From: a phage
Strand: one strand, 5' to 3'
DNA length: 64,000 bases
Sequence record: PZ386972.1
Part shown: piece after piece, positions 19,947-56,030 of the stretch
How the letters are laid out: each line of letters begins with the position of its first letter
Numbering within the stretch: the stretch's first letter is position 1
The notes under the pieces: model-generated
What the model saw: only the letters and a program-made list of their open reading frames with translations
What the model was told of the DNA's origin: nothing
The model's database searches: none
Position numbers and translations under genes: made by a program

Positions 19947-19975
19947 TTGCCAATTTCTATTAAAAATTGTATAAT
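19947..19975 (+). promoter_or_regulatory. early promoter (TTGCCA, 17 bp, TATAAT) followed by palindromic CGTGCACG element
   Basis: -35 at 19947-19952, -10 at 19970-19975. Confidence 0.5.
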
Positions 19976-20087
19976 CACGCACTCGTGCACGCGATATAAA
20001 ATGATTATCTAGTATCACACATCTCACGTTAAAAGCAAGCAAATTTTTTATTTAAATGCAATATCATAGGCTTATTTAAAATTGTAG

Positions 20088-20116
20088 TTGCTTTTTACTG
20101 TATATATTGGTATAAT
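20088..20116 (+). promoter_or_regulatory. early promoter (TTGCTT, 17 bp, TATAAT)
   Basis: -35 at 20088-20093, -10 at 20111-20116. Confidence 0.55.
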
Positions 20117-20189
20117 ATATTTGTAAGTTGATAAACAAGATCTTTTTGTTGATCCTCTGTTAGCGAAGTACACTATAGGAGTGTTATTT

Positions 20190-20942
20190 ATGGGAAAAGC
20201 ACGTCAAAAAAGAGAGAACCGCAATGGTTCAAGAAAGCGTGGCAACAAATATGAGAATAACGTAATTCAGGCTGATTTTTCTAATGATTACGCTAACCCA
20301 GTTGCTAAATCCCTAGTAGGTAAAAACCGCGAGCAAAAATCATATATCAATATGATCAAGAACAACACAGTGACTGTGGGTATCGGTGAGCCAGGTACTG
20401 GTAAAACCTTTATTCCGTCCGTTCTTGCAGCTCAGGAACTCGTAGACATTCACTCAGATATTGAGCAAGTGATCCTCGTACGTCCTAATGAACCTCTAGG
20501 TAAGTCTCTTGGTATGCTTCCTGGTGATCTAGCAGAAAAGCTAGAGCCTTGGTTGGAGCCAATAGCTGATGGTATGAAATGGGCCATCGGCGAACATGCC
20601 TATAAGGGATATGTCGAACGTCAGAAAATTAAATTTTTGGCTATCGAACATGCTCGTGGCAGAACTTTCAACAACTCCTATGTAATTGTCGATGAAGCTC
20701 AGAATATTTCCGTTGAGGCAATGATTTGTCTCCTAACTCGTGTAGGACAAGACTGCCGTTTAATTATCTGCGGAGATATAGCTCAGAAAGACATTAAAGG
20801 TGACTCAGGTCTAGCACTCCTTATGGAAGTCTATGAGAAATACGAAAATGCCCCATTCTCAATGATCGAATTGATTGATAACGTTCGTTCTGTTGAGTCT
20901 AAAGCATTCTATGACATCTTTAAAGACATGGGGAAGGTGTAA
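20190..20942 (+). CDS. phoH: PhoH-like ATPase
   Basis: Walker A GEPGTGKTF; Walker B VIVDEAQN; start set to ATG 20190 with AGGAG RBS. Confidence 0.75.
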   Translation: MGKARQKRENRNGSRKRGNKYENNVIQADFSNDYANPVAKSLVGKNREQKSYINMIKNNTVTVGIGEPGTGKTFIPSVLAAQELVDIHSDIEQVILVRPNEPLGKSLGMLPGDLAEKLEPWLEPIADGMKWAIGEHAYKGYVERQKIKFLAIEHARGRTFNNSYVIVDEAQNISVEAMICLLTRVGQDCRLIICGDIAQKDIKGDSGLALLMEVYEKYENAPFSMIELIDNVRSVESKAFYDIFKDMGKV

Positions 20943-20943
20943 T

Positions 20944-21165
20944 ATGGGAAACGTCGTTCATCTGAGCCGTAAAACTAAAATACATCGTACTTCACTGAGT
21001 GCTGCTAATATGATTACACGTAAGGAAGGGGAAGAAAGTCCTAAGACAACCCTAGCGTGGAAAATTGTAACCTCAAATCCAAATAAACCATTCAATTATA
21101 ACGAGCTGAGCACCTCCATAGATATTCTATTAAAAGAAGTAGCTAGAGCTAAAGTAATTGAATAA
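20944..21165 (+). CDS. hypothetical protein (73 aa)
   Basis: ORF track 20875..21165, start moved to ATG 20944 immediately after the phoH stop. Confidence 0.4.
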   Translation: MGNVVHLSRKTKIHRTSLSAANMITRKEGEESPKTTLAWKIVTSNPNKPFNYNELSTSIDILLKEVARAKVIE

Positions 21166-21307
21166 GCTAAAAAGCTAGACTGGTAATATACAGGGCCTGG
21201 GTATGAAAATACTCGGGCCTTTTCTATCAGAAAATTTTATTTGCCTAATGACCGATAATAAAGTAGAATATTCCTTAAATCCTGATAACTATAAAAAGGA
21301 AAGCCAA

Positions 21308-23638: not shown

Positions 23639-23647
23639 TAAAAACAA

Positions 23648-23670
23648 GGAGATCTTCGGGTCTCCTTTTT
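23648..23670 (+). terminator. rho-independent terminator after nrdA
   Basis: Hairpin GGAGATCTTCGGGTCTCC followed by TTTTT. Confidence 0.6.
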
Positions 23671-23684
23671 CTTTGAAATTTTAC

Positions 23685-23713
23685 TTGCTAATCGCTACCA
23701 GATTTGCTATAAT
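23685..23713 (+). promoter_or_regulatory. early promoter (TTGCTA, 17 bp, TATAAT)
   Basis: -35 at 23685-23690, -10 at 23708-23713. Confidence 0.55.
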
Positions 23714-23719
23714 ATTTAT

Positions 23720-24217
23720 ATGAAATTAACACAGAGTAGATTAAAAGAGCTAATCTCCTATGATCCTGAAACTGGTGAATTTACCTGGCTTCCAAGAAAA
23801 AATTTAGCAAAGCATTTATGGAACGCTAAAGCAGGAACCTACGATAAGCTAGGGTATCTTCGTATAAAAGTGGAAGGAGTTCAATACTTAGCTCATCGCC
23901 TAGCCTTCTTGTATATGACTGGAGAAATACCAGAAGGAAAAATTGACCATAAAGATACTAATCCGTCCAATTGTGCCTGGAATAATCTACGTGAAGCCAC
24001 GAGTTCCCAAAATTCTATGAACTCATGCGCAAGAGTGGATAACCAGCTTGGAATGAAAAATATTCGTGTAAAAGGCAATTCATTTCAGGTTAGGATAGGC
24101 AAAGACGGTAAATCTTATACAAAAACTTTAAAAACCATAGAAGAAGCTATAGAGTGGAGAGATACCAAACTACTAGAACTTCATGGGGACTTTGCAAACA
24201 ACGGAGAAGCTAAATGA
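23720..24217 (+). CDS. HNH homing-endonuclease-like protein
   Basis: 165 aa; HRLAFLYMTGE...IDHKDTNPSNCAWNNLREATSSQN matches the HNH signature; inserted between nrdA and nrdB. Confidence 0.7.
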   Translation: MKLTQSRLKELISYDPETGEFTWLPRKNLAKHLWNAKAGTYDKLGYLRIKVEGVQYLAHRLAFLYMTGEIPEGKIDHKDTNPSNCAWNNLREATSSQNSMNSCARVDNQLGMKNIRVKGNSFQVRIGKDGKSYTKTLKTIEEAIEWRDTKLLELHGDFANNGEAK

Positions 24218-26728: not shown

Positions 26729-26733
26729 CTTAA

Positions 26734-26757
26734 ATAGCCCTTCGGGGCTATTATATT
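26734..26757 (+). terminator. rho-independent terminator after thyA
   Basis: Hairpin TAGCCCTTCGGGGCTA followed by a T-rich run. Confidence 0.55.
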
Positions 26758-26767
26758 TAAATTTCAT

Positions 26768-26796
26768 TTGCTTATTTAGTGAAATCTAAATATAAT
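26768..26796 (+). promoter_or_regulatory. early promoter
   Basis: TTGCTT 26768-26773, TATAAT 26791-26796, 17-bp spacer. Confidence 0.6.
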
Positions 26797-26821
26797 ATAT
26801 TTTATAAATTGGAGGTATACA

Positions 26822-27103
26822 ATGATTTCAGCCAAAGAAGCTCAAGAACTTGCAGGATTAACAGAAGTACCCGCATTTCTAAAGTTTATAGAAGAAAAGA
26901 TTGTAGAAGCTGCTAAGTCTGGAAATACAGAAGTAATTATTCGAGATAATCCTTACGCTAGGTGGCTATATAATCCTAGAGAAATGCCAGGAGCAGCTAA
27001 ATCGGTACTAAAAACCTTATCGGATAAGGGGTATCATCTCTCACAATACTACCGAGAAGCCGCCTTTGTAGACATGGGTCTTAAAATTAGTTGGGAGGTA
27101 TAA
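26822..27103 (+). CDS. hypothetical protein (93 aa)
   Basis: ORF track; GGAGG RBS. Confidence 0.5.
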   Translation: MISAKEAQELAGLTEVPAFLKFIEEKIVEAAKSGNTEVIIRDNPYARWLYNPREMPGAAKSVLKTLSDKGYHLSQYYREAAFVDMGLKISWEV

Positions 27104-27579: not shown

Positions 27580-27599
27580 TAAATAAATTAAAAATTTTC

Positions 27600-27628
27600 T
27601 TGCTTAAAGCCACCTAATTTAGTATAAT
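27600..27628 (+). promoter_or_regulatory. early promoter
   Basis: TTGCTT 27600-27605, TATAAT 27623-27628. Confidence 0.6.
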
Positions 27629-27655
27629 ATTCGTATTGAAAGTGAGGAGGGCTTT

Positions 27656-27940
27656 ATGCGAATTTATAACTCAAATTCATTAGGATTTAAACCATTGAGA
27701 AAACGTGCACAATCACCTCGTCAAATAAGAAAGGCTAATATTGGTGAGCCAGAAACACGTCTTCCACCTCCTCCAGAACAACGTTTAGTTTATCTGGACG
27801 AAGAATTAGCTGAACGCGAAAGAAAAGCTCAAGAAGAGATTGAGCGTAAGAAAATGTGTACTGCCCCAGCCTACTCCAAAGGGGCTTATCAGTATATCTA
27901 TACAGCCGAAGAGGCCAAAGATGCGGGGCGTAAAAAATGA
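27656..27940 (+). CDS. hypothetical protein (94 aa)
   Basis: ORF track. Confidence 0.5.
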   Translation: MRIYNSNSLGFKPLRKRAQSPRQIRKANIGEPETRLPPPPEQRLVYLDEELAERERKAQEEIERKKMCTAPAYSKGAYQYIYTAEEAKDAGRKK

Positions 27941-28386
27941 AGATTACTGAATTTAAAGGTGCTTATAGTTTCTTATCTAACTTTTATTTATCACCAATTA
28001 CTTTCGAATATCTGAATGAAATATGGCATGCTGATACTGTAGAACATGCTTTTCAGGCTATGAAATCCGACCAAAAAGATGATGTAGCTCATGTACTACG
28101 CTCCCTAAATGCAGGAGTTGCTAAACGTAGAGGACGTAAATTAATTCTACGCTCTGACTGGGATAAGGTAAAAGATGATGTAATGTTAGAGCTTTTACGG
28201 TTAAAGTTTGCAATCCCTGATTTGAGAGACAAACTGTTAGCAACAGAAAATGCAACTTTGATTGAAGGAAATACCTGGGGGGATACATATTGGGGTGTTT
28301 GCCGAGGCATCGGGGATAATACTTTAGGAGTTCTTTTGATGCAGGTAAGGTCTGAAATTAAAAGAAGCTTACAGTTAATAAATTAA
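27937..28386 (+). CDS. NADAR (YbiA/DUF1768-like) domain protein
   Basis: 149 aa; YSFLSNFYLSPI...EHAFQAMK matches the NADAR signature. Confidence 0.6.
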   Translation: MKITEFKGAYSFLSNFYLSPITFEYLNEIWHADTVEHAFQAMKSDQKDDVAHVLRSLNAGVAKRRGRKLILRSDWDKVKDDVMLELLRLKFAIPDLRDKLLATENATLIEGNTWGDTYWGVCRGIGDNTLGVLLMQVRSEIKRSLQLIN

Positions 28387-28394
28387 AAATTCAT

Positions 28395-28423
28395 TTGCTA
28401 AACGCTTCAAATTCTCGTATAAT
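28395..28423 (+). promoter_or_regulatory. early promoter
   Basis: TTGCTA 28395-28400, TATAAT 28418-28423. Confidence 0.6.
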
Positions 28424-28461
28424 ATACTTCATAAATTGATAAACAAAAAGGAAAATAAATA

Positions 28462-29256: not shown

Positions 29257-29264
29257 TTTAAATC

Positions 29265-29562: not shown

Positions 29563-30264
29563 ATGAAAGTAAAACCATTTGGTATGCTAGATATTGAATC
29601 TCTAGGAACTCCAGGAGATTGTGGTACTACTCATATCGCAATGCCTTCTTTCGCTTTTGTGGCTATGCATGGGATTGATAAAGACCCTGACTTAGTATTT
29701 GTTACTTTGGATGTGCAGGATCAGCTTAATTCTGGTGCCAAAGTTACAGCATCTACTCTAGCATTCTGGATGGATCAAGCTAAAAATAGCCCCTCTGCTA
29801 TTCACATAATGGAAGCTATGAAGGAACGTAATCCAAAACTGATTGCCTTCCAAAATGGTAAACATCATTGCACTAATAAATTAGGCTCAAACTATGCTGC
29901 CTTCTCTATGGCGCAAAATATTATGGAGTTGGCTCTAGGCGAAAATGCTTTGTATTATGGCAATGGCCCAGAGTTTGATATGACTATCTACTCTGCAAAC
30001 ACGTTCCATGCTGGAACCAATGAAGAGGTAGTTCCGTGGAAATTCTGGAATTTAGGCAATGTTCGATCTCTTCGTAATCTCTGGATGCAAGCTGGTTATA
30101 GTTACAAAGATCTAGAGGCTGAAGGTATTAGCTGGGCAAAAGCTAAAATGGAAAAGATGGACACCATTCGTTATGGGATCTATCCGGTTAAGCACGACCC
30201 AGCATTCGATGCCCTAGTTGAGGGCTATTGTGTTGCAGCTATGATCGAAAAAATGAAAATTTGA
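29563..30264 (+). CDS. DEDDh-type 3'-5' exonuclease-like protein
   Basis: 233 aa; N-terminal LDIESLG (Exo I-like D-x-E) and C-terminal HDPAFDAL (H-x4-D). Confidence 0.4.
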   Translation: MKVKPFGMLDIESLGTPGDCGTTHIAMPSFAFVAMHGIDKDPDLVFVTLDVQDQLNSGAKVTASTLAFWMDQAKNSPSAIHIMEAMKERNPKLIAFQNGKHHCTNKLGSNYAAFSMAQNIMELALGENALYYGNGPEFDMTIYSANTFHAGTNEEVVPWKFWNLGNVRSLRNLWMQAGYSYKDLEAEGISWAKAKMEKMDTIRYGIYPVKHDPAFDALVEGYCVAAMIEKMKI

Positions 30265-30265
30265 T

Positions 30266-30294
30266 TTGCTTCCGGCTCCAAAATTCTGTATAAT
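30266..30294 (+). promoter_or_regulatory. early promoter
   Basis: TTGCTT 30266-30271, TATAAT 30289-30294. Confidence 0.6.
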
Positions 30295-30334
30295 ATATTC
30301 ATAAATTTGAGAAAACAATAAAAGGAAAACAAAT

Positions 30335-31209: not shown

Positions 31210-31592
31210 TAATTTAAAAGCTAGTAAATCGGTAGACGAAAGCCCAAGCATCTTACCTCGCAGCAGCGGTTGAAATACGAGGTTAAATAAGACCGCTGAC
31301 CATACTATAAAGTATAATCTATTGGAGATTATGTTTATTACACCAGCCTTTTAAGCTGACACGTAAGAACAAAGCGTCGTTGATATTACCGACACAACTT
31401 CAAAGATCAACATTTAAGTATGAAAGCTGAAAAGTTTAAAGAACTCAAACTTCTAAACTTCTAAAGCTAAAAGATGCAAAGTATTCGTTGATGATTCAAA
31501 CCCTAGATCAAAGGTACATGGCTTATAAGATATGGCCTGTGGCGCCTCTAGGCTGTTTATCGGTTTACTAGTTTCACAATTTAAAAATGTAT

Positions 31593-31621
31593 TTGCTAAT
31601 TTACTAAGTTATTTGTATAAT
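31593..31621 (+). promoter_or_regulatory. early promoter
   Basis: TTGCTA 31593-31598, TATAAT 31616-31621. Confidence 0.6.
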
Positions 31622-31651
31622 ATATTTTTAAATTGATGAAACGAGGCTATT

Positions 31652-31969
31652 ATGACTTTTCATATTTTGATTGATGATGTGCGTAATCTTCACGGAATGG
31701 ACATTATCATTCGAACCCCAGAAGCCGCTGTAGAGTTTCTGAATAAAACTGATACCACAGGCCACTTCGTTTATATGGATAATGACTTGGCTGTAGATGG
31801 TATGGAAGGTTATCAAATTCTTCGTTTACTATTAGAATTTGGGCAGAGACCAAAGAAAGTGGTACTAGTAACCTCGAACCCAGTAGCTAAGCAAAATATG
31901 CGTAATGATTTGCTTGACTTAGGGTATAAAGAAAATCCCAATCGTGTTGAATATGATTGGCAGGAGTAA
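31652..31969 (+). CDS. hypothetical protein (105 aa)
   Basis: ORF track. Confidence 0.5.
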   Translation: MTFHILIDDVRNLHGMDIIIRTPEAAVEFLNKTDTTGHFVYMDNDLAVDGMEGYQILRLLLEFGQRPKKVVLVTSNPVAKQNMRNDLLDLGYKENPNRVEYDWQE

Positions 31970-32424
31970 AAAGAATGAAGGCAGCTTTGCTTTTAGTAGC
32001 TGCCCTTACCTTCAGCTTTAGTAGTCAGGCATCGCACGATGCAAAAGAAATAGATTGCATTGCTAAAAATATCTATTTCGAGAGTCGTGGTGAGGGCATA
32101 AAGGGAATGACGGCGATAGCACATGTTACTAAAAACCGTGTAAACTCCGGTAAATTCCCAGATTCCTACTGTAAAGTAGTATATCAGTCTAACCAGTTCT
32201 CTTGGGTATCTAAGAGACCAAAAGTTGATAAAACTGATGAGGCTTGGCAAACCGCTAAGAATTTAGCTAGAGTGATATACTACGTTGATTTACCACAAGA
32301 TCCTACACATGGAGCACTATACTTCCATAGTGGTAAAGATAAACCTTACTGGACAAAGAAGTTTAAGAAAACAACTAAGATTAAGGGACATACGTTTTAT
32401 AAACCTGTTGTCACTAAAACTTAA
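31957..32424 (+). CDS. secreted SleB-like cell wall hydrolase (Hydrolase_2 family)
   Basis: 155 aa; signal peptide MKAALLLVAALTFSFSSQA; NIYFESRGE...AHVTKNRV...QSNQFSW matches the SleB signature. Confidence 0.6.
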   Translation: MAGVKRMKAALLLVAALTFSFSSQASHDAKEIDCIAKNIYFESRGEGIKGMTAIAHVTKNRVNSGKFPDSYCKVVYQSNQFSWVSKRPKVDKTDEAWQTAKNLARVIYYVDLPQDPTHGALYFHSGKDKPYWTKKFKKTTKIKGHTFYKPVVTKT

Positions 32425-32433
32425 AAATTTACT

Positions 32434-32461
32434 TGCTTAAATACTTAAATTTCTGTATAAT
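32434..32461 (+). promoter_or_regulatory. early promoter
   Basis: TTGCTT 32434-32439, TATAAT 32456-32461. Confidence 0.55.
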
Positions 32462-32492
32462 ACTTTCATAAATTAATGAGAGGAAGCGAATT

Positions 32493-32663
32493 ATGAAATC
32501 AGTTGTAATTATTGGTGTTAACACTCGCGGTATTCGTACTACGAAAACTGTTAAAACTTCTAACGTTGCTGAAATCACTACGAACCCTAAAAAGTTTGAT
32601 TTCGCCAAAGTCTCAGCAGTTATGACAGAACAATCTTTTAACCAAGCATTGGGGATGAAATAA
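32493..32663 (+). CDS. hypothetical small protein (56 aa), below the ORF-track size cutoff
   Basis: ATG 10 nt after GAGAGGAAG RBS, directly downstream of promoter 32434-32461; stop overlaps next start. Confidence 0.35.
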   Translation: MKSVVIIGVNTRGIRTTKTVKTSNVAEITTNPKKFDFAKVSAVMTEQSFNQALGMK

Positions 32664-33097
32664 TGGGTACGAATATGCTTCGTGTGCTGCGAGAATTAAT
32701 TGAAAAAGCTCGCAAACACGGTGATACTGTGTCAGTCAAGCACCTTAGTACGATTTTAGGCGACTTACAACGAATTGATAAAGATTGCGTATCTAGACTA
32801 GAGTTTACTAACTGGGTTAAATCACAGTTCAAAGCAATTGAGAATACAATGACTTCTGCTGCAAAAGCAAATATCGAATATACTCCAGATGCTGAATATC
32901 TCGACTTGTTAGCAGGTCTAGAGCATGAATATGCTCTGGAGCAGTTAACTGAAGTTCAGATTCGTGAGTATTTTGCAGAACTGGTTAAATTAAACCCAGG
33001 TATTACCAAAGCTCTATTAATGAAAACTATTAAGGCAGAATTTCCTGGACGTTATGATGGTAAAACAACTGCTTTGATTGCTAGTGAATTTTTCTAA
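32663..33097 (+). CDS. hypothetical protein (144 aa)
   Basis: ORF track. Confidence 0.5.
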   Translation: MGTNMLRVLRELIEKARKHGDTVSVKHLSTILGDLQRIDKDCVSRLEFTNWVKSQFKAIENTMTSAAKANIEYTPDAEYLDLLAGLEHEYALEQLTEVQIREYFAELVKLNPGITKALLMKTIKAEFPGRYDGKTTALIASEFF

Positions 33098-33105
33098 AAA
33101 TTCAT

Positions 33106-33134
33106 TTGCTAAATACTTATAAATTCTGTATAAT
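33106..33134 (+). promoter_or_regulatory. early promoter driving an ~0.8 kb non-coding transcript
   Basis: TTGCTA 33106-33111, TATAAT 33129-33134. Confidence 0.6.
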
Positions 33135-33357
33135 ATATTCATAAATTAGGGAACAGCGAGCCGATTACGCTGAGTGCAGAATCCCAACCGGAGCGCATTG
33201 AATAGAGTCGGTGGGTTAGTTGTAAAACTAGTACACAGGGGGCGGCAATCCCGGTTAGTGGCTAGAACGTGTAAAATGAGGCGTCTGAAACCTCTCCCCT
33301 AAACTCTTCTCTGATTTATAAATAGTGGGGTGTGGAAATCACTTATGTAGTAACACT

Positions 33358-33429
33358 GCCGTCCTAGTATAATTGGTATTATCAAGCCGTAACTGGTGGA
33401 AGATGTAGGTTCGAATCCTACGGTCGGTA
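33358..33429 (+). ncRNA. tRNA-like element with canonical T-arm but no anticodon arm found by hand
   Basis: T-arm GTAGGTTCGAATCCTAC at 33405-33421; 5' segment GCCGTCC pairs to 3' GGTCGGT with one mismatch. Confidence 0.3.
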
Positions 33430-33931
33430 AGAACTGGATAACTGATGCTTTTAACGTAAAAGCTTCCTAGGTTAGTTGCGCACTGCCTAAACCACGCGGT
33501 AGTTGGTTCCAGACTAACCAACCAGTCTGCTGAATAGTTTTATTACGATTTAACTATGTCCAGGCTAAAGAAGAACTTTAGAAGGTATTCTAGGATAGTG
33601 AAGTTCTTTCTCCATATCGGAGTAGTTTTTCAAGCTATCCACAAAGTGGGAAATGCTGACATGAGAGATGTCACTAATGGTGCACAATAGCACAGGTAAT
33701 TCGCGATAACTCCTGTTGAGTAGCAGCAAAAGGTGGGAAGTCATGACCCCAAGCCTAACCGAGTCCTCAATATACCGCAGGACATAACCACTAAGTCACC
33801 CTGACTTAAACTGGAAAATAATAGACGTTACTGTATTTTGTCTTGAAATACTTAATGAGTGAGACTTATGACTCTCCCGGTATCGTCTGTATTTTTAAGA
33901 GTTTTTACGAGAGTTCTTAAAAATACTTAAA

Positions 33932-35084: not shown

Positions 35085-35603
35085 ATGGGTGTTGATGAAT
35101 TAACACAGCATCTTCTATCTAGAGGATTTGATGCGGATAAATATCATTGCTGGTTAAGTCCGGAAGGATGGCTAACAGTCCCGTTGTATGATTTCTCTGG
35201 GATGTTGAGGGGCTATCAAACTTATAATCCTTCTGCTCCAAAAGGTCATGGTAAGTGTCCCTTTGAAGCTAAATATTTTACCTATTCTACTACCCAGTGT
35301 GTATGGGGATTAGAAACTCTCAATGGAGATGAAAAAGTAGTATTGATCGCTGAATCTGTATTTAAGGCAGTTGCGTTACATAATGCTGGTTATCCAGCCC
35401 TAGCAATGTTGGGTTCTTCTCCAGGAAAAGCGTTATTAAAGCAACTGAAATTATTACCTTTTAAATTGGTAGCTGTCGGGGATAACGATCCTGCGGGTGA
35501 AAAATTTGCTAGAAAATTAAACGGCTTTGTTTCTCCTGTAGATGTGGATGAGATGTCTACAGAAAACTTGAAAAATTTTCTTGCTATGAAGCTAAATTTC
35601 TAA
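35085..35603 (+). CDS. TOPRIM-like domain protein
   Basis: 172 aa; VVLIAESVFKAVAL...VAVGDNDPAGEKFA resembles a TOPRIM fold. Confidence 0.4.
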   Translation: MGVDELTQHLLSRGFDADKYHCWLSPEGWLTVPLYDFSGMLRGYQTYNPSAPKGHGKCPFEAKYFTYSTTQCVWGLETLNGDEKVVLIAESVFKAVALHNAGYPALAMLGSSPGKALLKQLKLLPFKLVAVGDNDPAGEKFARKLNGFVSPVDVDEMSTENLKNFLAMKLNF

Positions 35604-35609
35604 TATAAT
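35581..35609 (+). promoter_or_regulatory. early promoter embedded in the 3' end of the 35085..35603 CDS
   Basis: TTGCTA 35581-35586, TATAAT 35604-35609. Confidence 0.55.
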
Positions 35610-35624
35610 ATATCTTATAAATTC

Positions 35625-35713
35625 GGAAGAATAGCATAACGGTATTGCAGCAGATTGCTAATCTGTCGGTTTGAAATATAGCCTTGTGGGTTCGATTCCC
35701 ACTTCTTCCACCA
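35625..35713 (+). tRNA. tRNA-Ser (anticodon GCU), long variable arm
   Basis: Acceptor GGAAGAA/TTCTTCC; anticodon loop TTGCTAA; T-arm GTGGGTTCGATTCCCAC; CCA encoded; 89 nt. Confidence 0.6.
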
Positions 35714-36761: not shown

Positions 36762-36791
36762 CTCCTCCAAACAGAATTTTTAAAAATGTAC

Positions 36792-36821
36792 TTGCCTTTT
36801 GCTTTAAATTTCTGGTATAAT
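36792..36821 (+). promoter_or_regulatory. early promoter
   Basis: TTGCCT 36792-36797, TATAAT 36816-36821, 18-bp spacer. Confidence 0.55.
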
Positions 36822-36851
36822 AGTTATATAAATTGATGAAGGAGTTAACGA

Positions 36852-37127
36852 ATGCAAAATCGTGTTATAGCAACTGGTATTGAAAGTGCAATCTGTAAAT
36901 CCTGGGAAGGCTGGGAAGGTGAGATTGAATGGCTTTATTTCTACGATGTAGAACTTCTGCCGGAAGTTAAAGCTAAATGTGTTGAAGCTGGCATGGCTCC
37001 AGATGCAAAAGCTGATATTGATATTTCAATGTCTGAACTTAAAGGTCGTGTAATTACTGTTAGTGATGAGGGCGAAGAAGTTTTCGAACTTCCATTCTCC
37101 TTAACTGTCGCTCCTAAGTTCGACTAA
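36852..37127 (+). CDS. hypothetical protein (91 aa)
   Basis: ORF track; GGAG RBS. Confidence 0.45.
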   Translation: MQNRVIATGIESAICKSWEGWEGEIEWLYFYDVELLPEVKAKCVEAGMAPDAKADIDISMSELKGRVITVSDEGEEVFELPFSLTVAPKFD

Positions 37128-37132: not shown

Positions 37133-37173
37133 ACAGCACTGAGCAAGTTCTTTAAAATTTGACTTGCTCAGTG
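37133..37173 (+). terminator. 12-bp-stem hairpin whose 3' arm overlaps the next promoter's -35
   Basis: GCACTGAGCAAG ... CTTGCTCAGTGC inverted repeat. Confidence 0.4.
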
Positions 37174-37192
37174 CCATAAAACTTGATATAAT
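37164..37192 (+). promoter_or_regulatory. early promoter
   Basis: TTGCTC 37164-37169, TATAAT 37187-37192. Confidence 0.5.
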
Positions 37193-37255
37193 AGTTATCT
37201 AATTTGGAAACATATCTAAAAGTGTTTAAACTAGTATTTGAATACTTTTAAATAT

Positions 37256-38088: not shown

Positions 38089-38376
38089 TTGAGGGAGCTG
38101 CTGATGCATCCTGAAAACTTCTTTATTTACTGCGCGGATAAGTTGCTGAAACGTAGAATTAACAAAGTCTATCATTATCGTGCTAGTCAACAGCCTTATG
38201 TATACGCTTTTGACGGTGATCACATCCCATTAGAACAACTATCTTGTGATTACATGATATTGAAGAACTTTGACGAGACAAAGATCTCAAGCGTTCATAA
38301 TCGACAGAATCCCTTAACGTGGAAATATAAGAAGAAAAAGAAAGGCATCAAATTCTTAAAAAATGTAGTTGCTTAG
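38089..38376 (+). CDS. hypothetical protein (95 aa)
   Basis: ORF track. Confidence 0.4.
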   Translation: MRELLMHPENFFIYCADKLLKRRINKVYHYRASQQPYVYAFDGDHIPLEQLSCDYMILKNFDETKISSVHNRQNPLTWKYKKKKKGIKFLKNVVA

Positions 38377-38397
38377 TTTCCAAAAGTTCTGTATAAT
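38369..38397 (+). promoter_or_regulatory. early promoter
   Basis: TTGCTT 38369-38374, TATAAT 38392-38397. Confidence 0.55.
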
Positions 38398-38425
38398 AAT
38401 TACATAAATTGAACTGGAGAAGCAA

Positions 38426-38713
38426 ATGAAACGATTAGTTAGATTTAAGTGTTGTGGTTCTGAACATATTTTCACACATCTTCGTGAATTTAAAATGTGT
38501 GATTGTGGTAAATCAGGCTATGACTCAGGAGATGGGTTCTACACCCGTACTCTAGGGAACTTCAATGATCTAGAATTTGAAGATCTCGAAAAACAAGAAA
38601 AAGAATTATGTATCTGTTATGAATGTGGTGATCAAGATTACTACTCTAAAACAGGTAAGAAAGTGTGTAGCAATTGTGGTTCCGATCATGTAGCTACACA
38701 TTATGAAAGATAA
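38426..38713 (+). CDS. Cys-rich zinc-finger-like protein (95 aa)
   Basis: Multiple CxxC pairs (CDCGKSG, CYECGD, CSNCGSDH). Confidence 0.45.
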   Translation: MKRLVRFKCCGSEHIFTHLREFKMCDCGKSGYDSGDGFYTRTLGNFNDLEFEDLEKQEKELCICYECGDQDYYSKTGKKVCSNCGSDHVATHYER

Positions 38714-40277: not shown

Positions 40278-40422
40278 TATAAAGTTTACTTATTATGTAG
40301 GTTCCGATAGATCGGCGGGTCTATTCTGGCATTTAAGAGAGGTCTCGCAAACTTCTTTGTCAGCCGTGGGGTTGATAGCCTCCAGGTGGCCTACACAATA
40401 AGTAAATTTATTAAAAATTCAT

Positions 40423-40451
40423 TTGCTATTCTGCTTAATTATCTGTATAAT
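40423..40451 (+). promoter_or_regulatory. early promoter
   Basis: TTGCTA 40423-40428, TATAAT 40446-40451. Confidence 0.6.
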
Positions 40452-40481
40452 ATATTTTATAAAGTGAGTTAACAAAATTAA

Positions 40482-40557
40482 CAGTGCGTAGCGCAGTTGG
40501 TAGCGTGGGAGCCTTGGATGCTTCGGGTCGCAGGTTCGAGTCCTGCCGCACTGACCA
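40482..40557 (+). tRNA. tRNA-Pro (anticodon UGG)
   Basis: Acceptor CAGTGCG/CGCACTG; anticodon stem GGAGC/GCTTC with loop CTTGGAT; T-arm GCAGGTTCGAGTCCTGC; CCA. Confidence 0.65.
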
Positions 40558-40909: not shown

Positions 40910-40927
40910 ATTTCAAGAAAAACGCAG

Positions 40928-40956
40928 TTGCTTGATGCTTAATTTCTTGTTATAAT
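40928..40956 (+). promoter_or_regulatory. early promoter followed by a 9-bp-stem leader hairpin
   Basis: TTGCTT 40928-40933, TATAAT 40951-40956; hairpin TGATGAGGA-TTT-TCCTCATCA at 40969-40989. Confidence 0.55.
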
Positions 40957-41194
40957 ATTTATATAAATTGATGAGGATTTCTCCTCATCATAGTTCACTA
41001 AGGTATTAGCTCGACCTAGGACTGGCTGCCAAAAAGCACGATCCCTACGATTCGGGAGAAGTTCTAGATTAGTCCACTAGATTCAGCGGCAACTGAATAG
41101 TGTATCGGGTTTGCGAGATGACGCGGTTCCTTCCGCTCGAAGCGAAGGTGCTGTAGTTACGCCGAGCTAATAGCCTTAGTAAACTAAAGAATTT

Positions 41195-45838: not shown

Positions 45839-45855
45839 ATTCTGAAATAATTCAT

Positions 45856-45884
45856 TTGCTAAACCTCTCTTTTCTTGATATAAT
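45856..45884 (+). promoter_or_regulatory. early promoter
   Basis: TTGCTA 45856-45861, TATAAT 45879-45884. Confidence 0.6.
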
Positions 45885-45914
45885 ATATTTATAAATTGAT
45901 GAGAGAGGTTTGAA

Positions 45915-46196
45915 ATGAAAAATCGCCTAGACTGTGCTGTTCATGTTCTTGAACATGATGTTGTGGGAACCTGTATGTCTTACCATGAAGCAGGTCGTTT
46001 AATTAAAGAACGTGTGGCAGATGTGTGCGGGTTGAAGATTACTGCTGAGGAAGCTGATGATCTCTTAGGTCAAGCACTGGAGAAAACCGAAATGTTCCTC
46101 TGCGATTCTTGTTCTTGGTGGTGTGAAGCTCACGAACGTTCTTTCAACGATTATGATGTATGTCGTGATTGTAGCGGGGAGGATGAAGATGAATAA
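45915..46196 (+). CDS. hypothetical Cys-rich protein (93 aa)
   Basis: ORF track; CDSCSWWC...CRDCSG. Confidence 0.45.
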   Translation: MKNRLDCAVHVLEHDVVGTCMSYHEAGRLIKERVADVCGLKITAEEADDLLGQALEKTEMFLCDSCSWWCEAHERSFNDYDVCRDCSGEDEDE

Positions 46197-47886: not shown

Positions 47887-47980
47887 GATTGACACTAAGT
47901 CAACTTACTAGCAAAAGCAAATAATGACAAAGCCCAGCCTGCACTTTTGCGACTGGGCTATTTTTGTAATAAAATTTTAG

Positions 47981-48009
47981 TTGCATAGATGCCCGAACTT
48001 TTGTATAAT
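47981..48009 (+). promoter_or_regulatory. early promoter
   Basis: TTGCAT 47981-47986, TATAAT 48004-48009. Confidence 0.55.
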
Positions 48010-48040
48010 ATATTCATAGATTGAGGCAAGAGGATTAAAT

Positions 48041-48739
48041 ATGAGGATTATTTCTAAATTCGCAGATGTATATGATTTGCAGAACAGTTTGTTTGATCCC
48101 GATCGTGTTTGGGAGCGTAAAACTGAAGAGTTACTGGTTAAAGTAACTGATGATGCAGAAAAGAACATCGTGCATAGTCGCCAGGTATTTCGTGAAGATT
48201 CACTATCTTTCCGTGGAGACTTCGAATACTTTGTAAATCCATTGTTCGTTGCAGGTGAAGTTTACTGGTTACACGAGCTGTACTGCTGGCATCCAGAGTT
48301 TAGCTTCAAAACGTTCGACCTCGACACTATGTTCGATAAAATGGAAGAGATGGGATTGCATGCTCGCTCTTACTTAATGGATAAGAGTCGTGGAGATGTT
48401 CGTGAAACAATGCGTGATTTGCTCGTTGAAGCAAAACCTAAAGCAGAACGTATCTTGTCCGAACTGCGTGTACCGATTGCATATGTGAAAGGTATCAAGA
48501 AGAACGATAACGATGATGTTCGTAACTTCGTGATTCAGACTAACATTCGTTTCCATCAGTCAGGTATTCCGTGGCAGGAAATTGAAAGTAACTTATACCG
48601 TTTACACCAAGTTCTCGAACAGTATATCTTCGGTGTACTAGGAACTGGTGAGCCTGATATGATTAAAGTATCAGATAAAGATAGGTTAGCAGCGCATGGA
48701 TTTGATACAAAAACTTCTTTCAGGAATATGGCATGGTAA
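48041..48739 (+). CDS. hypothetical protein (232 aa)
   Basis: ORF track; AGGATTAAAT RBS. Confidence 0.5.
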   Translation: MRIISKFADVYDLQNSLFDPDRVWERKTEELLVKVTDDAEKNIVHSRQVFREDSLSFRGDFEYFVNPLFVAGEVYWLHELYCWHPEFSFKTFDLDTMFDKMEEMGLHARSYLMDKSRGDVRETMRDLLVEAKPKAERILSELRVPIAYVKGIKKNDNDDVRNFVIQTNIRFHQSGIPWQEIESNLYRLHQVLEQYIFGVLGTGEPDMIKVSDKDRLAAHGFDTKTSFRNMAW

Positions 48740-52026: not shown

Positions 52027-52050
52027 AGGCGGGGATATTCCCGCCTTTTT
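52027..52050 (+). terminator. rho-independent terminator after the endolysin
   Basis: Hairpin AGGCGGGGATATTCCCGCCT followed by TTTTT. Confidence 0.65.
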
Positions 52051-52093
52051 AGGCAAAGGGGGCTTTAATAATTTTTGAAGATAGGAGAAAGCC

Positions 52094-52510
52094 ATGTTTG
52101 CAGAACTATTCACTATGATGCTGCTAGGTATCTGGAAAATAAGTCTAGTAGTATTCGTTTTAATGATAGTCTTTACTATCATTGCATTAACTACCCGAAA
52201 TAGCTTATTAATAAAGGTTATTCACGGACTAGAGTATATAATTATGGGTTCATTCGGCGTTTGTAAATGCAATTGCCATAGAGATACGAAATATTGTTGG
52301 TTATGGATGGAACTAGAGAATCCTATATCCATAGCTTTGGCTGTTTCATTCGGTATGATTCTTATGGCCCTTACTCTAGCATTAATACCTTTGATGTTAG
52401 CTGGGGGAGTTACAGCGTATTTCACCCTTTTCTCCCCGATACTTATGTACTCAATTTACCCAATAACTATGTATCTAGTTAGGAAAAAATTTATACATAC
52501 AGTAGATTAA
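52094..52510 (+). CDS. hypothetical multi-pass membrane protein (138 aa)
   Basis: ORF track; several hydrophobic segments. Confidence 0.4.
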   Translation: MFAELFTMMLLGIWKISLVVFVLMIVFTIIALTTRNSLLIKVIHGLEYIIMGSFGVCKCNCHRDTKYCWLWMELENPISIALAVSFGMILMALTLALIPLMLAGGVTAYFTLFSPILMYSIYPITMYLVRKKFIHTVD

Positions 52511-52523
52511 GATAAAAAAGTAG

Positions 52524-52552
52524 TTGACTTTTAGCCCTAGTTATTATATAAT
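52524..52552 (+). promoter_or_regulatory. promoter (TTGACT, 17 bp, TATAAT)
   Basis: -35 at 52524-52529, -10 at 52547-52552. Confidence 0.55.
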
Positions 52553-52585
52553 ATATACATAAATTAGTTAAGAGAGGTATATATT

Positions 52586-53017: not shown

Positions 53018-53300
53018 ACTAGTATATCTATTGAAAGGTTCCACTTGCAATCCTTGCAAAATGTTTGAGCCAGTATTTGATAAAGTAGTCAATGACTATA
53101 ATTTGGAAATCCATAAAGAGACTGATAACACAGAATTAATGCAGAAATTTGGTGTGCGCCAAGTTCCTGTAGTAGTTCTGGCGGATCGCTTACCTAATGG
53201 TCGAGTAGAAGCTAATCATATTCTGATTGGACGTCAGCTTCGTAAAGAAACTATGCACGAAGCTATTAAAAATTTCCTGGATGATAATCCAGAGGACTAA
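53010..53300 (+). CDS. thioredoxin/glutaredoxin-like protein
   Basis: 96 aa; CxxC active-site-like STCNPCKMF; cis-Pro-like VRQVPVVV. Confidence 0.5.
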   Translation: MSKLVYLLKGSTCNPCKMFEPVFDKVVNDYNLEIHKETDNTELMQKFGVRQVPVVVLADRLPNGRVEANHILIGRQLRKETMHEAIKNFLDDNPED

Positions 53301-53308
53301 TAAACAAA

Positions 53309-53337
53309 GCCTGATCTTAGCGGATCAGGCTTTTATT
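53309..53337 (+). terminator. rho-independent terminator
   Basis: Hairpin GCCTGATCTTAGCGGATCAGGC followed by TTTTATTTT. Confidence 0.65.
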
Positions 53338-53341
53338 TTAC

Positions 53342-53370
53342 TTGCTTTTTGCTAAAAATTTTGGTATAAT
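53342..53370 (+). promoter_or_regulatory. early promoter
   Basis: TTGCTT 53342-53347, TATAAT 53365-53370. Confidence 0.6.
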
Positions 53371-53397
53371 ATTTATATAAATTGACCGGAGGATTAA

Positions 53398-53643
53398 ATG
53401 TTAGCGGAACAGGCAAAACGTTTAGCCAGAATAAATAGAGCTGCACTTCTTAAAAGCAGAAAGAAACAATATAAGTATGTTAAAAAGAGAATAGTTTCTT
53501 CTGTGGGGATTGGAGGTTCTTTTGTACAGTTTAATCGTGATGAAATTAGTTATGAAGCTATAAAAGCCCTCTATAAAGAGGGTTATACCCTCCAACTATC
53601 TAATGATTATGGTACAACTATTTTAACTGTTATTTGGGAATAA
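53398..53643 (+). CDS. hypothetical protein (81 aa)
   Basis: ORF track; GGAGG RBS. Confidence 0.4.
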   Translation: MLAEQAKRLARINRAALLKSRKKQYKYVKKRIVSSVGIGGSFVQFNRDEISYEAIKALYKEGYTLQLSNDYGTTILTVIWE

Positions 53644-54509
53644 TTATGAAAAAAGAATTTAATGTACATAAAACTCTAGTAGTGCCGGATGATGCCAACT
53701 TGTTTTTCGTTGGTGATATTCATGGATGCAACGATTTGCTAGAAGATGCGTTGAAATTAGCTGGGTATAATAGCAAAAAAGATTGCGTAGTATGTGTTGG
53801 TGATTTAATTGACCGAGGCACGCAAAACCTACAAGTTTTAGCCAAATTCCTGTATAATCCACGCTTTATCAGTGTCCGTGGTAATCATGACCAATTTATG
53901 ATTGTGGGAGATTGGGCTAATTGGATGTATAATGGCGGTATGTGGGCCATGAATGAACTAGATGCAGACACCATTAAAAATATTGCCGAAGATATGGCTG
54001 AAAAAATGCCAGTATTCCTAACTGTTAGACATCGTGGTAAGAAGTTTGGTGTTGTTCATGGTGGTGTACCTTTTACATACAAAGAATGTGGTAATGAAGT
54101 AGAAACCCCAGTATGGGATAATCTTATTGCACAAGTAGAAGCAACTAAGGAAGACCCACATGACCATCCGGGATACCATGTTGAACCATATTTATGGGAT
54201 CGAGATGTAATCCAAGAAATAGGCTTCTACTTGTCCAAAAATGGTGAGGAACACCCATATTTCCAGCGTTATGCAGGATTTAAAGAAAAATACATGGTAG
54301 AAGTGCCAGAAGTTAAAGGGGTAGATTTCGTATTTCACGGGCATACTGGGGTCCCTTACCCGCTTCTTTATAAAAACCGTGTTTATCTTGATACTGGCGG
54401 TGTTTTCAACGGGCAGTTGACGGTTGCGCAGGTTAATGATGAAACGGGCAAAATCACCACATTTACTACACTCCGGGAAGATAGCTGTGGTGTACAGAGG
54501 ATTCTTTAA
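53634..54509 (+). CDS. Ser/Thr protein phosphatase (PPP-family metallophosphatase)
   Basis: 291 aa; GDIHG...GDLIDRG...RGNHD signature. Confidence 0.7.
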   Translation: MGIIMKKEFNVHKTLVVPDDANLFFVGDIHGCNDLLEDALKLAGYNSKKDCVVCVGDLIDRGTQNLQVLAKFLYNPRFISVRGNHDQFMIVGDWANWMYNGGMWAMNELDADTIKNIAEDMAEKMPVFLTVRHRGKKFGVVHGGVPFTYKECGNEVETPVWDNLIAQVEATKEDPHDHPGYHVEPYLWDRDVIQEIGFYLSKNGEEHPYFQRYAGFKEKYMVEVPEVKGVDFVFHGHTGVPYPLLYKNRVYLDTGGVFNGQLTVAQVNDETGKITTFTTLREDSCGVQRIL

Positions 54510-54808
54510 TGAATGATAGAATGAAAGAAGTACGAGAAGAATTACGAGCAATGCGTATTGATGCCCTTCGTTGGAGGGCATTAGTTAATGCTTTCGTCAA
54601 AGGAGATACTGGGGTAATATATTCTGGGATAGCAGTCAATTTTTGTTTTAATTCTCCTACTGAAATAGAGGTAGAAACAAGGCTTACTACCTATCTTAAT
54701 GAGGTAGACCTTAAGGAAGGAGAGACTTCCGAGGAGTTTAAAACCAAAGTGTTAACCTCTTGGGTTGATAGTTTAATACAGAATAAGGAAAAGAGTAATG
54801 AAAGTTAA
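54509..54808 (+). CDS. hypothetical protein (99 aa)
   Basis: ORF track. Confidence 0.4.
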   Translation: MNDRMKEVREELRAMRIDALRWRALVNAFVKGDTGVIYSGIAVNFCFNSPTEIEVETRLTTYLNEVDLKEGETSEEFKTKVLTSWVDSLIQNKEKSNES

Positions 54809-55388
54809 ATTCTGGTCAGACTTGCACCTAGACCACCCTGGAGCGTTACGTTTCCGTCCGTGGTTTAAGAACATGAAGGAGCACGATGAGTATATTCTAG
54901 ACACTTTGTCCAAGCATATTGGTAAACGAACAAAACTTATTTTGCTAGGGGATATTGCAGTAGGTCGTGAAGGTCTGGCCAAATTAAAGTCGGTTATCCA
55001 CAATGTTCCTAACCAACTTATAATGGGCAACCACGATGCGGAACGTCAAGGACTGAGTATTAGGGACTTAGCAGAAGTTTATGACGATATTCAGGCTCTA
55101 GGTAAACAGACTGGAGGCGGCAAAAAGTTTTGGCTATCTCACTGCCCTTTGCACCATAATGAACTTCGTGGCAAACTAAATATTCACGGACACGTACATA
55201 CTACTTCTCTACGTGATCCACGTTATATCAATGTCTCATTTGAAATGAGTAAAACTCCAATTCCACTAGAAGATATTGTGTCTGGTAAGTTTACTAGTTA
55301 TGATAGAGTAGTTAATTGTACTACCGGCGAGGTATTACAAATAGGGGAAGACGTAGCTGCTGTATTGCGTGGTGATATAAATGTCTGA
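54798..55388 (+). CDS. calcineurin-like metallophosphoesterase
   Basis: 196 aa; SDLHLDHP, LLGDIAVGREG, MGNHD, GHVH motifs. Confidence 0.6.
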   Translation: MKVKFWSDLHLDHPGALRFRPWFKNMKEHDEYILDTLSKHIGKRTKLILLGDIAVGREGLAKLKSVIHNVPNQLIMGNHDAERQGLSIRDLAEVYDDIQALGKQTGGGKKFWLSHCPLHHNELRGKLNIHGHVHTTSLRDPRYINVSFEMSKTPIPLEDIVSGKFTSYDRVVNCTTGEVLQIGEDVAAVLRGDINV

Positions 55389-55496
55389 GTATATAGCTGA
55401 GGCTATTATTAAACGAATTATACAAGCGGTAGCAATACTTATAATCATTTGTATTGCTATTGGCACAGGATTAGGCATTTTAATTAAAAGTTTTAT

Positions 55497-55525
55497 TTGC
55501 TAAAATGCTTAAGTTTCTGTATAAT
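55497..55525 (+). promoter_or_regulatory. early promoter overlapping the end of a 39-aa hydrophobic mini-ORF (55384..55503)
   Basis: TTGCTA 55497-55502, TATAAT 55520-55525. Confidence 0.55.
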
Positions 55526-55555
55526 TACTTTATAAATTGATGAGAAGGAATCAAA

Positions 55556-55984
55556 ATGAACAAAGTTGATAAAGCTCTAGTTTTCGCAGCAGCAGATAAG
55601 TTTGAACAAGTTAAGGCAACTTTCCGAACCTTGTTCCAGTCTTACGTTCAGGATAAGTCTAACCCTATCTCTGAACGTTTGATGGTCTGGGAATGTTACG
55701 CAACTGATGCCCTATTAATGGCAGATTACAGAGGTGAGGCAGACGAAGAGATCGAAGAACTCTTTGCTGAAGAAGCACCACGTTACCAGGCAGTTTATTT
55801 CCAGGATCTAGCTGAACGCATCATTCCTGATGATCTTTGGGACAAATACTATGGCAATCCTGAAGATGATGGAATGACACCAGAAGCGTGTATTGAGCTG
55901 ATCTGCAAAGATCATCCTGAAATCGCAGAAAAATTTGAGCAAGTATTGGCTTCTGAGTTTTCAGGTTTCGTTAACGATTGGTAA
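55556..55984 (+). CDS. hypothetical acidic protein (142 aa)
   Basis: ORF track; GAAGGAA RBS. Confidence 0.45.
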   Translation: MNKVDKALVFAAADKFEQVKATFRTLFQSYVQDKSNPISERLMVWECYATDALLMADYRGEADEEIEELFAEEAPRYQAVYFQDLAERIIPDDLWDKYYGNPEDDGMTPEACIELICKDHPEIAEKFEQVLASEFSGFVNDW

Positions 55985-56001
55985 GTAATTAAAAAATTCA
56001 G

Positions 56002-56030
56002 TTGCTTTAAGCCTTAAAATTCTGTATAAT
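56002..56030 (+). promoter_or_regulatory. early promoter
   Basis: TTGCTT 56002-56007, TATAAT 56025-56030. Confidence 0.6.

Follow-up and report, generated by a model that had tools for sequence, protein, structure and literature searches.

The 64,000-nucleotide stretch of phage DNA analysed here (sequence record PZ386972.1, referred to below as the window) carries many copies of one promoter module, composed of an A-tract, a -35 element TTGCTW, a 17-bp spacer, the -10 hexamer TATAAT, and a conserved box downstream of it. A search with the pattern TTGCTW-N17-TATAAT, allowing at most one mismatch, gave 28 matches where about 2.27 are expected, and this number was reached in 0 of 100 dinucleotide-preserving shuffles. 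The strict copies are found on both strands, 21 on the plus strand (19947 to 56002) and 7 on the minus strand (3231, 7631, 9078, 10294, 11335, 14878, and 17892). The position-weight matrix scan (spacers of 16-18 bp, strong sites defined by a score of at least 31 bits) returned 30 strong sites, with a shuffle maximum of 10.8 bits, and brought in copies with -10 hexamers at 36816 (+), 3618 (-), and 52547 (+), along with weak TTGAC-type relatives at 59056 (+) and 61115 (+). The totals are 28 strict copies, 30 strong ones, and 33 with the three weak ones included; single copies are named below by a position within them. The repeated module is real, and all coordinates listed in the first-pass annotation, including the 7 reverse-strand copies, were correct in the pattern scan. 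Its figure of at least 25 copies holds for the window in total (28 strict, 30-33 relaxed) but not for the plus strand inside 19947-56030, where 23 are found.

At 85-99% identity, the window aligns with several hundred T5-like phages that belong to Escherichia and Salmonella; the aligned blocks are mostly 88-98% identical to T5-like phages, and a few are at 82-86%. When T5 is taken as its reverse complement, the two are colinear over T5 positions from approximately 8.0 to 74.3 kb, which covers nearly all of the T5 early region, with the right end of the window entering the left terminal repeat. In the T5 record (AY543070) promoters are annotated as 75-nt features (approximately -55 to +20), and 30 of the 33 modules coincide with T5 promoters; in 29 cases the promoter is such a 75-nt feature, and in one it is P-F30, which is annotated as a short feature. 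Copy 11335 (-) corresponds to P-N25, 10294 (-) to P-N26, 7631 (-) to P-K28a, and 28395 (+) to P-H207, and further named matches are P11, P13a/b, P14a/b, P15b/c, P16-17, P-D/E33, and P-F30. The window copy of N25 is identical to the T5 feature from the -10 to +20. The assignment to early promoters of the T5 P_N25 class, made earlier from the sequence, is borne out by this comparison: the module is the long-known early promoter set of T5 and its relatives, made up of very strong promoters, and its detection here is a rediscovery. The family has been studied since the 1980s and is already annotated in public records, and the current understanding of it is unchanged. P_N25 is a long-standing model promoter and the basis of commercial expression vectors. 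Gentz and Bujard reportedly noted in 1985 that the two consensus hexamers are never found together in a strong T5 promoter, which would fit the sub-consensus TTGCTW. For phage vB_EcoS_AKFV33, 97.5% identical to the window in the stretch compared, 32 host-polymerase (sigma-70) promoters were described with TTGCTw, 17-18 bp, TATAATA, and AT-rich elements at -43 (AAAAATT) and +1 (TAAATT) (Niu et al. 2012, PMC3326045).

With 28 copies aligned on the -10, the information content is above background from -45 to about +17, and the conservation thus reaches into the transcript, as had been stated from the sequence. The upstream stretch starts with AAAA[A/T]TT at -45 and continues through the -35, with A in 23-27 of the 28 copies at positions -45 to -42 and T in 26 at -40. 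This A/T-rich tract resembles in sequence the proximal subsite of an UP element and is thus a candidate site for the alpha C-terminal domain (alpha-CTD); an UP element is labelled in the T5 promoters in Fig. S5 of PMC7472727. The 3' half of the spacer is also conserved, showing a T-run and then G at -14 or -13, and TGn is present in about half of the copies. The base following the -10 hexamer is A in 25 of 28 copies, and the discriminator has A at -6 in 25 and T at -3 in 24. Its column consensus is A-T-(a/t)-T-t, while single copies matching ATATT at four or more of the five positions number 13 of 33, and in copy 19970 the discriminator is GC-rich instead of AT-rich. The start region is composed of Y at -1 (26 of 28), A at +1 (19), T at +2 (24), AAA at +3 to +5, and TT at +6/+7 (20 and 25 of 28, respectively), and a purine-rich run follows to about +17.

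Several modules directly adjoin a terminator formed by a hairpin and a T-run, and there the T-run stands in for the A-tract. The terminator stretches lie at 9121-9165, 23626-23670, 26709-26753, and 53283-53327; in the last case, upstream of 53342, the sequence is AAAGCCTGAT-cttagcgg-ATCAGGCTTT TATTTTAC TTGCTT. At such modules the terminator and the promoter are one compact unit. Together with its flank, the early -35 reads (a/t)tTTGCT(t/a)a and is similar to the consensus given for the T4 MotA box in PMC2988021, (a/t)(a/t)TGCTT(t/c)a. The likeness is probably a coincidence, because the spacing is the canonical 17 bp for sigma region 4.

The modules are given here from -49 to +26, with the box described by its heptamer ATAAATT, by the 13-mer ATAAATTGAKGAG, or by its variant in the initial transcribed sequence (ITS), and with the Shine-Dalgarno (SD) site where there is one. 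On the minus strand they serve the replication genes. The module at 3199..3273 lies upstream of the DNA polymerase gene and has the ITS variant GTAAGTTAG and a 55-nt leader with a 5' hairpin, while the one at 3586..3660, with TTGCTG, an 18-bp spacer, and no ATAAATT, lies upstream of an extra open reading frame (ORF) of 109 aa; the part after the -10 in the former and the part before the -10 in the latter both correspond to T5 feature 70987. The P-K28a ortholog (7599..7673), upstream of ligase subunit B, has the full box with SD and is identical to T5 in 75 of 75 positions, and the next module (9046..9120), which has a terminator directly upstream, precedes a 90-aa ORF and ligase subunit A. The P-N26 ortholog (10262..10336), upstream of D3, carries the ITS variant ATAGTTTGA and has a long leader, and the P-N25 ortholog (11303..11377), upstream of D2, reads ATAAATTTGAGAGAGGAG, with +1 taken from PMC7472727. 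The module at 14846..14920 precedes the gene of the replication-origin-binding protein, shows the ITS variant ATTGAATTGAGAGAC, and matches T5 feature 58999 at 73 of 75 positions. The last minus-strand module (17860..17934) has box and SD, and a hairpin with a T-run is seen by eye directly upstream of it, where the terminator script gave no flag.

The first plus-strand site (19933..20007) is a variant with an UP-like tract, TTGCCA, and TATAAT but a GC-rich discriminator and ITS (CACGCACTCGTGCACGCG) and no box (downstream block score -19); it is the first of a tandem pair before phoH-nrdAB. The second (20074..20148), upstream of phoH, has the ITS variant GTAAGTTGA and a 67-nt leader and is identical to T5 53638 in 75 of 75 positions. 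The modules at 23671..23745, upstream of an HNH endonuclease gene and nrdB, and at 26754..26828, upstream of a 93-aa ORF and RNase H, both have a terminator upstream, and in the latter the box is shifted by +1 and followed by SD. The site at 27586..27660 lacks ATAAATT (ATTGAAAGTGAGGAGG) but has SD, with 72 of 75 positions identical to T5 46337. A box shifted by +1 and a 32-nt leader are found in the P-H207 ortholog (28381..28455), and the box ATAAATTTG with a 34-nt leader at 30252..30326. Box and SD are both present at 31579..31653 (TTAAATTGA), in the P-D/E33 ortholog (32419..32493), in the P15c ortholog (36779..36853, with TTGCCT and an 18-bp spacer), and in the P14b (38355..38429) and P11 (43508..43582) orthologs.

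The orthologs of P16-17 (33092..33166), P15b (35567..35641), and P13a (40409..40483) have the box and no SD: the first drives tRNA-Arg and a stretch free of ORFs, named RNAX in the T5 record, in the second the tRNA-Ser starts at about +10, and the third, with the box ATAAAGTGA shifted by +1, lies upstream of tRNA-Pro and tRNA-Met. The P14a ortholog (37150..37224) is found upstream of tRNA-Tyr and has the ITS variant CTAATTTGG. The P13b ortholog (40914..40988) drives tRNA-Ala and a region of stable RNA, for which the T5 record has RNA2H, and its full 13-mer box is part of a hairpin and not of an SD. Further downstream, box and SD are present in all of the modules at 45842..45916 (exact 13-mer; pattern scan, T5 comparison), 47967..48041 (TTGCAT, box ATAGATTGA), 52510..52584 (-35 TTGACT, box ATAAATTAG, 75 of 75 positions identical to T5 19368), 53328..53402 (terminator ending 8 nt before the -35), 55483..55557 (exact 13-mer, at the T5 P-F30 position), and 55988..56062 (75 of 75 identical to T5 16245). 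Two weak relatives with TATAAT complete the set, one at 59019..59093 (+), with -35 TTGACG, a degenerate box, and a T5 feature at 13212, and the other at 61078..61152 (+), with -35 TTGACA, ATAGATTAA, and no T5 counterpart. Downstream of the 33129 and 40951 promoters, the ORF-free stretches extend over 33140-33930 and 40957-41190 (+). Their counterparts in the T5 record, RNAX (719 nt) and RNA2H, are both annotated as stable RNAs of unknown function. An Rfam scan of the whole window returned tRNAs only, with a weak tRNA-like match at 33358-33429 in the first of the two stretches.

The distance from the -10 to ATAAATT is 6 bp in most copies and 7 bp in 6 of 33 (3618, 14878, 26791, 28418, 35604, and 40446). 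At least six of the seven positions match in 22 of the 30 strong sites and at least five in 28, in comparison with 0.9% and 5.8% of random positions, and positions +1 to +9 hold 5.8 bits of information in sites picked without regard to the downstream sequence. Three copies lack the box: 19970 (+), 27623 (+), and 3618 (-). The two halves of the box behave differently with the type of gene downstream. In the 18 copies with a start codon at +19 to +28 the mean match to ATAAATT is 6.5/7 and the G fraction over +10 to +18 is 0.46; the values are 5.6/7 and 0.14 for the 7 copies with longer mRNA leaders, and 6.4/7 and 0.24 for the 5 copies followed by tRNA or stable-RNA genes (random positions give a mean of 2.7/7 for ATAAATT). 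The +10 to +18 segment is a purine-rich SD match, 5-10 nt before the start codon of a real ORF, in the 18 copies with 19-28 nt leaders only, and the G-rich segment is there because about 18 operons have such minimal leaders.

The box is thus composed of two adjacent elements, a promoter-intrinsic start and initial transcribed sequence and, where leaders are minimal, a gene-specific SD site. ATAAATT is not a ribosome-binding site, since it is kept equally well before tRNA and stable-RNA genes, and in copy 35604 the tRNA-Ser gene begins at +10. The proposal that the box doubles as a ribosome-binding site fails for ATAAATT on the same comparison (6.4/7 against 6.5/7 with short mRNA leaders), and the related description of one transcription-translation cassette is valid for about 18 of the 33 copies and not for the rest. 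The 13-mer, with up to two mismatches, has 19 matches in the window (6.25 expected), of which 11 are linked to promoters. The other eight are at chance level and none is in a translation-initiation context in the window scan, which rules out an independent translational signal; the box as an independent translation enhancer was rejected for the same reason.

For the comparison between phages, sites were chosen by the upstream tract, the -35, and the -10 only. The consensus AtTT.y ATAAAtTgA aGAaA after the -10 is recovered in four further genome stretches, namely those of T5, Klebsiella phage vB_Kpn_B01 (Sugarlandvirus, DNA polymerase 78% identical), Proteus phage 2 (Novosibvirus, 68%), and Vibrio phage GRLPWR (Thalassavirus, 57%). 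In Vibrio phage D115 (polymerase 49% identical) there is a weaker ATAAA core. Sixteen orthologous promoter pairs were formed from the D2, D3, ligB, and polymerase promoters and their counterparts in four distant genomes. The average identity in these pairs is 0.64 for the discriminator, 0.64 for +1 to +9, 0.56 for +10 to +20, and 0.57 for the UP-like tract, with 0.27 for the 5' half of the spacer and 0.33 for the far flanks. Locus-specific ITS variants are common to the orthologs, namely the N26 variant given above and GTAAGTT at the polymerase promoter, and such inheritance argues against homogenisation by gene conversion. Judged by these alignments, the C-poor, purine-rich ATAAATT start is under purifying selection in the Klebsiella, Proteus, and Vibrio relatives, beyond N25 itself.

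The start site is known from N25. The segment TATAATAGATTCAT was numbered -12 to +2 on N25's non-template strand (Klimuk et al. 2020, PMC7472727), and with this numbering the A opening ATAAATT is +1. A start 6-8 bp after the -10, as was predicted, agrees with the published +1 of T5 N25, the single promoter with data; a genome-wide study of T5 transcription starts was not found in the literature search. The polymerase is held extremely tightly at N25, where promoter escape is the rate-limiting step (PMC12464699). When its +3 to +20 region was exchanged for the Kammerer 'antiDSR', the full-length RNA decreased about tenfold and the escape half-life rose from 3 to approximately 45 min, and where the initial sequence is rich in pyrimidines, the pre-translocated state, backtracking, and abortive release are favoured (PMC12464699). 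In the window, C is found at 1.4% over +1 to +10 for the whole class (background 17.6%), the first C in the transcript is at a median of +18 (4 for random 30-mers), and the purine fraction over +1 to +20 is 0.69.

In the mechanism that we propose, the modules would be read by the host sigma-70 RNA polymerase. They occur at about one per 2 kb, and each stands at the head of a short operon that holds early genes, tRNAs, or stable RNAs. The polymerase would be captured by stacked elements, i.e. the UP-like A-tract around -43, the sub-consensus -35 TTGCTw, and the 17-bp spacer, and further by the perfect -10, the 6-bp AT-rich discriminator, and the Y(-1) A(+1) T(+2) start. The AT-rich, purine-rich, and nearly C-free ATAAATT(G)A from +1 would then let the tightly bound polymerase leave fast, with no abortive cycling. 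The GAGAGG-like second half (+10 to +17), where present, is an ordinary SD site. Such a design would pair maximal polymerase capture with an initial sequence made for quick exit.

We consider it probable (about 0.82) that the modules are host sigma-70 early promoters of a T5-like phage in which the box is an escape-promoting initial sequence joined to an ordinary SD site. The escape function, measured for N25, would by extension apply to all copies. Several points weigh against this interpretation. Escape was measured for the N25 sequence alone and not for the class, and the +1 of the window copies is transferred from T5 N25 by sequence identity. A composition requirement does not obviously explain the fixed T(+2) and TT(+6/+7) from E. 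coli to Vibrio phages, and the good copies 27623 and 3618 manage without the box. In addition, the annotated T5 promoters of the pre-early class (P-H22 and a feature at 6411) lack ATAAATT, as do the late ones (P-G25, P-J5, oad), and both groups mostly have a TTGACA-type -35, while the promoter of the early-expressed T5 lpp gene has the full module. The pre-early and late promoters are active even so; the box is therefore specific for the early class, which hints at a regulatory role besides escape.

The strongest alternative, although unlikely in our estimate, starts from this specificity: the discriminator and ATAAATT would be mainly a class-specific regulatory handle, used either for joint shut-off of the early class by gpT5.026 on the RNA polymerase or by the DNA-binding protein D5, or for a sigma-70-retaining pause at about +16 to +20. 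An ATATT discriminator is described as common to all known T5 early promoters, polymerase binding to the -12/+2 non-template oligonucleotide is about 8-fold lower with gpT5.026, and deletion of gpT5.026 increases early RNA and decreases late RNA (Klimuk et al., PMC7472727). Both candidate factors are encoded in the window, a gp026 homolog at 57614-58075 (+) and D5 at 6061-6828 (-), the latter assigned by its position relative to T5 D5. However, the effect of gpT5.026 in vitro is moderate, with no strong effect on transcription (PMC7472727). Homologs of gp026 were detected by tblastn (E<=1e-3) in Klebsiella, Proteus, Pectobacterium, and Providencia phages, with no Vibrio phage among the host groups listed, yet the Vibrio phage GRLPWR has the box. 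As for the pause, strong E. coli promoters typically have a consensus -10, a 6-bp spacer, and a YR(+1)Y start, and these features are also prerequisites of the sigma-70 proximal pause in E. coli (PMC7876045). All three are present in the modules, and 27 of the 33 copies have a -10-like TAnnnT at +2 to +7. This hexamer lies 13-14 bp from the real -10, not 11 bp as in distal pauses (PMC7876045), and no N25 pause was reported in the literature found. The regulatory alternative is compatible with the escape explanation and not exclusive of it.

In a broader form, to which we give a similarly low probability, ATAAATT with the ATATT-type discriminator would be a sequence-specific signal defining the early class across Demerecviridae. 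Such a signal could keep sigma-70 bound or make the polymerase pause when the minimal leader comes out; alternatively, gpT5.026, D5, or another phage factor could act on it to shut off all early units together. If true, it would open a way to approach the T5 early-to-late switch, which is unsolved. The specificity for the early class keeps alive the published idea that the discriminator and start region are the site of early-to-late switching.

Far less probable is a translational role of the whole box, in which a ribosome-binding site with an A/U-rich enhancer would be kept at the RNA level for translation and not for transcription. In the 18 copies with a start codon at +19 to +28 the entire leader falls inside the ribosome footprint, and the +10 to +18 segment is a good SD. 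On the other hand, ATAAATT is as well conserved before tRNA and stable-RNA genes, is kept ahead of 32-67 nt leaders where the SD is far off, and has a distance fixed to the -10 and not to the start codon, and internal genes that have no promoter are not preceded by the motif beyond chance. The translational explanation is already largely refuted by these observations. The least credible and disfavoured explanation, that the downstream similarity has no function of its own and reflects recent duplication or gene-conversion homogenisation of a promoter cassette, draws on promoter copies being homology islands at indel junctions relative to T5 (18 of 72 block ends inside modules) and on one insertion bounded by two -10 hexamers, but it is opposed by the persistence of the consensus at 49-78% polymerase identity, with the 5' half of the spacer randomised to 0.27, and by the inherited locus-specific ITS variants.

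The insertion just mentioned is found between the primase and DNA polymerase genes. The sole T5 promoter there (AY543070, 70987-71061) is represented by two in the window (3199-3660, -), which flank the extra 109-aa ORF (3263..3592; no Pfam hit). The T5 promoter corresponds to copy 3618 up to TATAATA and to copy 3231 from TATAATA on, which places the insertion junction inside the shared -10. Of 439 T5-like genomes, 51 carry the ORF insertion and most lack it; it looks like a cassette insertion by recombination between promoter copies. In the blastn comparison with T5, the 18 homology-block ends inside modules (3.2 expected if uniform) are at 3241, 3617, 9057, 10333, 17861, 23715, 26804, 28385, 33152, 37220, 38429, 40467, 40909/40913, 43510, and 59080/59090, clustering at the upstream edge (approximately -54 to -45) or from -17 to +26. 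Several of them border swapped or inserted ORFs, as at the 23708 promoter, which is directly followed by a different HNH endonuclease gene. The enrichment of breakpoints in modules (P ~1e-9 under the uniform null) is not robust, as about 20 are expected with breakpoints confined to the ~14% non-coding DNA.

The GC-rich promoter at 19933-20007 (+) has a normal A-tract, -35, and -10 before its deviating downstream part, and counterparts are found at the same divergent nrdD/phoH place in T5 (53776-53850, CCTGCGCCTATGTACGCGG) and in Vibrio phage D115 (approximately 27442, -; CCCGCGCATCATGCGCGCG). In the window and in T5 it forms a tandem pair with a canonical copy. For an operon of nucleotide metabolism, a GC-rich discriminator suggests a different, possibly growth-state-sensitive regulation. 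The leader of the DNA polymerase mRNA opens with a hairpin, the arms of which vary between relatives yet pair. It is located at 3166-3226 (-) in the window and at 19944-20003, 6290-6348 (-), and 11752-11829 (-) in the Klebsiella, Proteus, and Vibrio stretches, respectively. The arms are GGUAAGU and ACUUACC in the window and the Klebsiella phage, GUUGGAU and AUCCAAC in the Proteus phage, and GAGGUAAUUCGGA and UCUGGAUUACCUC, followed by a U-run, in the Vibrio phage. The hairpins are seen in single-sequence folds of the leaders, with modest z-scores (-0.4 to -3.1); RNAalifold gave no consensus structure for the four polymerase leaders from a MAFFT alignment in which the 3' arms were misaligned. 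The hairpin could serve as a translational operator, or it could attenuate the synthesis of the polymerase.

In respect to known systems, the T5 early promoters have the same positions, the same genes, near-identical sequence, and the same extended homology, from the -43 A-tract to the +1 region, as the modules of the window. The window phage is not T5 itself, with aligned blocks 82-98% identical, gene-cassette indels, and two promoters instead of one in the primase-polymerase interval. The consensus published for AKFV33 is the module described in the first-pass annotation; that paper (PMC3326045) credits the flanks to AT-richness and curvature and makes neither a separation of ITS from SD nor a cross-genus comparison. 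The PeSL mobile regulatory cassettes known from T4-type phages (Arbiol et al. 2010, PMC2839356; Comeau et al. 2014, PMC4122927) likewise have conserved early-promoter and terminator motifs that border variable ORFs and lie at indel junctions. In comparison with them, the analysis here covered a single clear junction case, and the enrichment cannot be told apart from that given by indels falling in intergenic DNA; no description of PeSL-like cassettes in T5-like phages was found in the literature.

The T4 early 'uber' promoters (UP/-35/TGn/-10; Hinton 2010, PMC2988021) follow a like strategy, in which stacked elements for sigma-70 and alpha-CTD, with extra consensus regions, outcompete host promoters. 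Their consensus is another one, T4 also modifies the polymerase (Alt, AsiA/MotA), and the review (PMC2988021) describes no conserved initial transcribed sequence. The sigma-70 pause elements of lambda PR' and of the E. coli G1 pauses (PMC7876045) have the same consensus -10, 6-bp spacer, YR(+1)Y start, and early TAnnnT, with the T5-type offset being 13-14 bp instead of 11, and the resemblance is one of sequence only. The closest parallel to the escape function is the N25 downstream sequence region (Kammerer et al. 1986; Hsu laboratory, PMC12464699), which is the downstream box of copy 11335 (-). The escape experiments concern that one promoter, whereas the C-poor, purine-rich ATAAATT start described here holds for the class and for the phage family.

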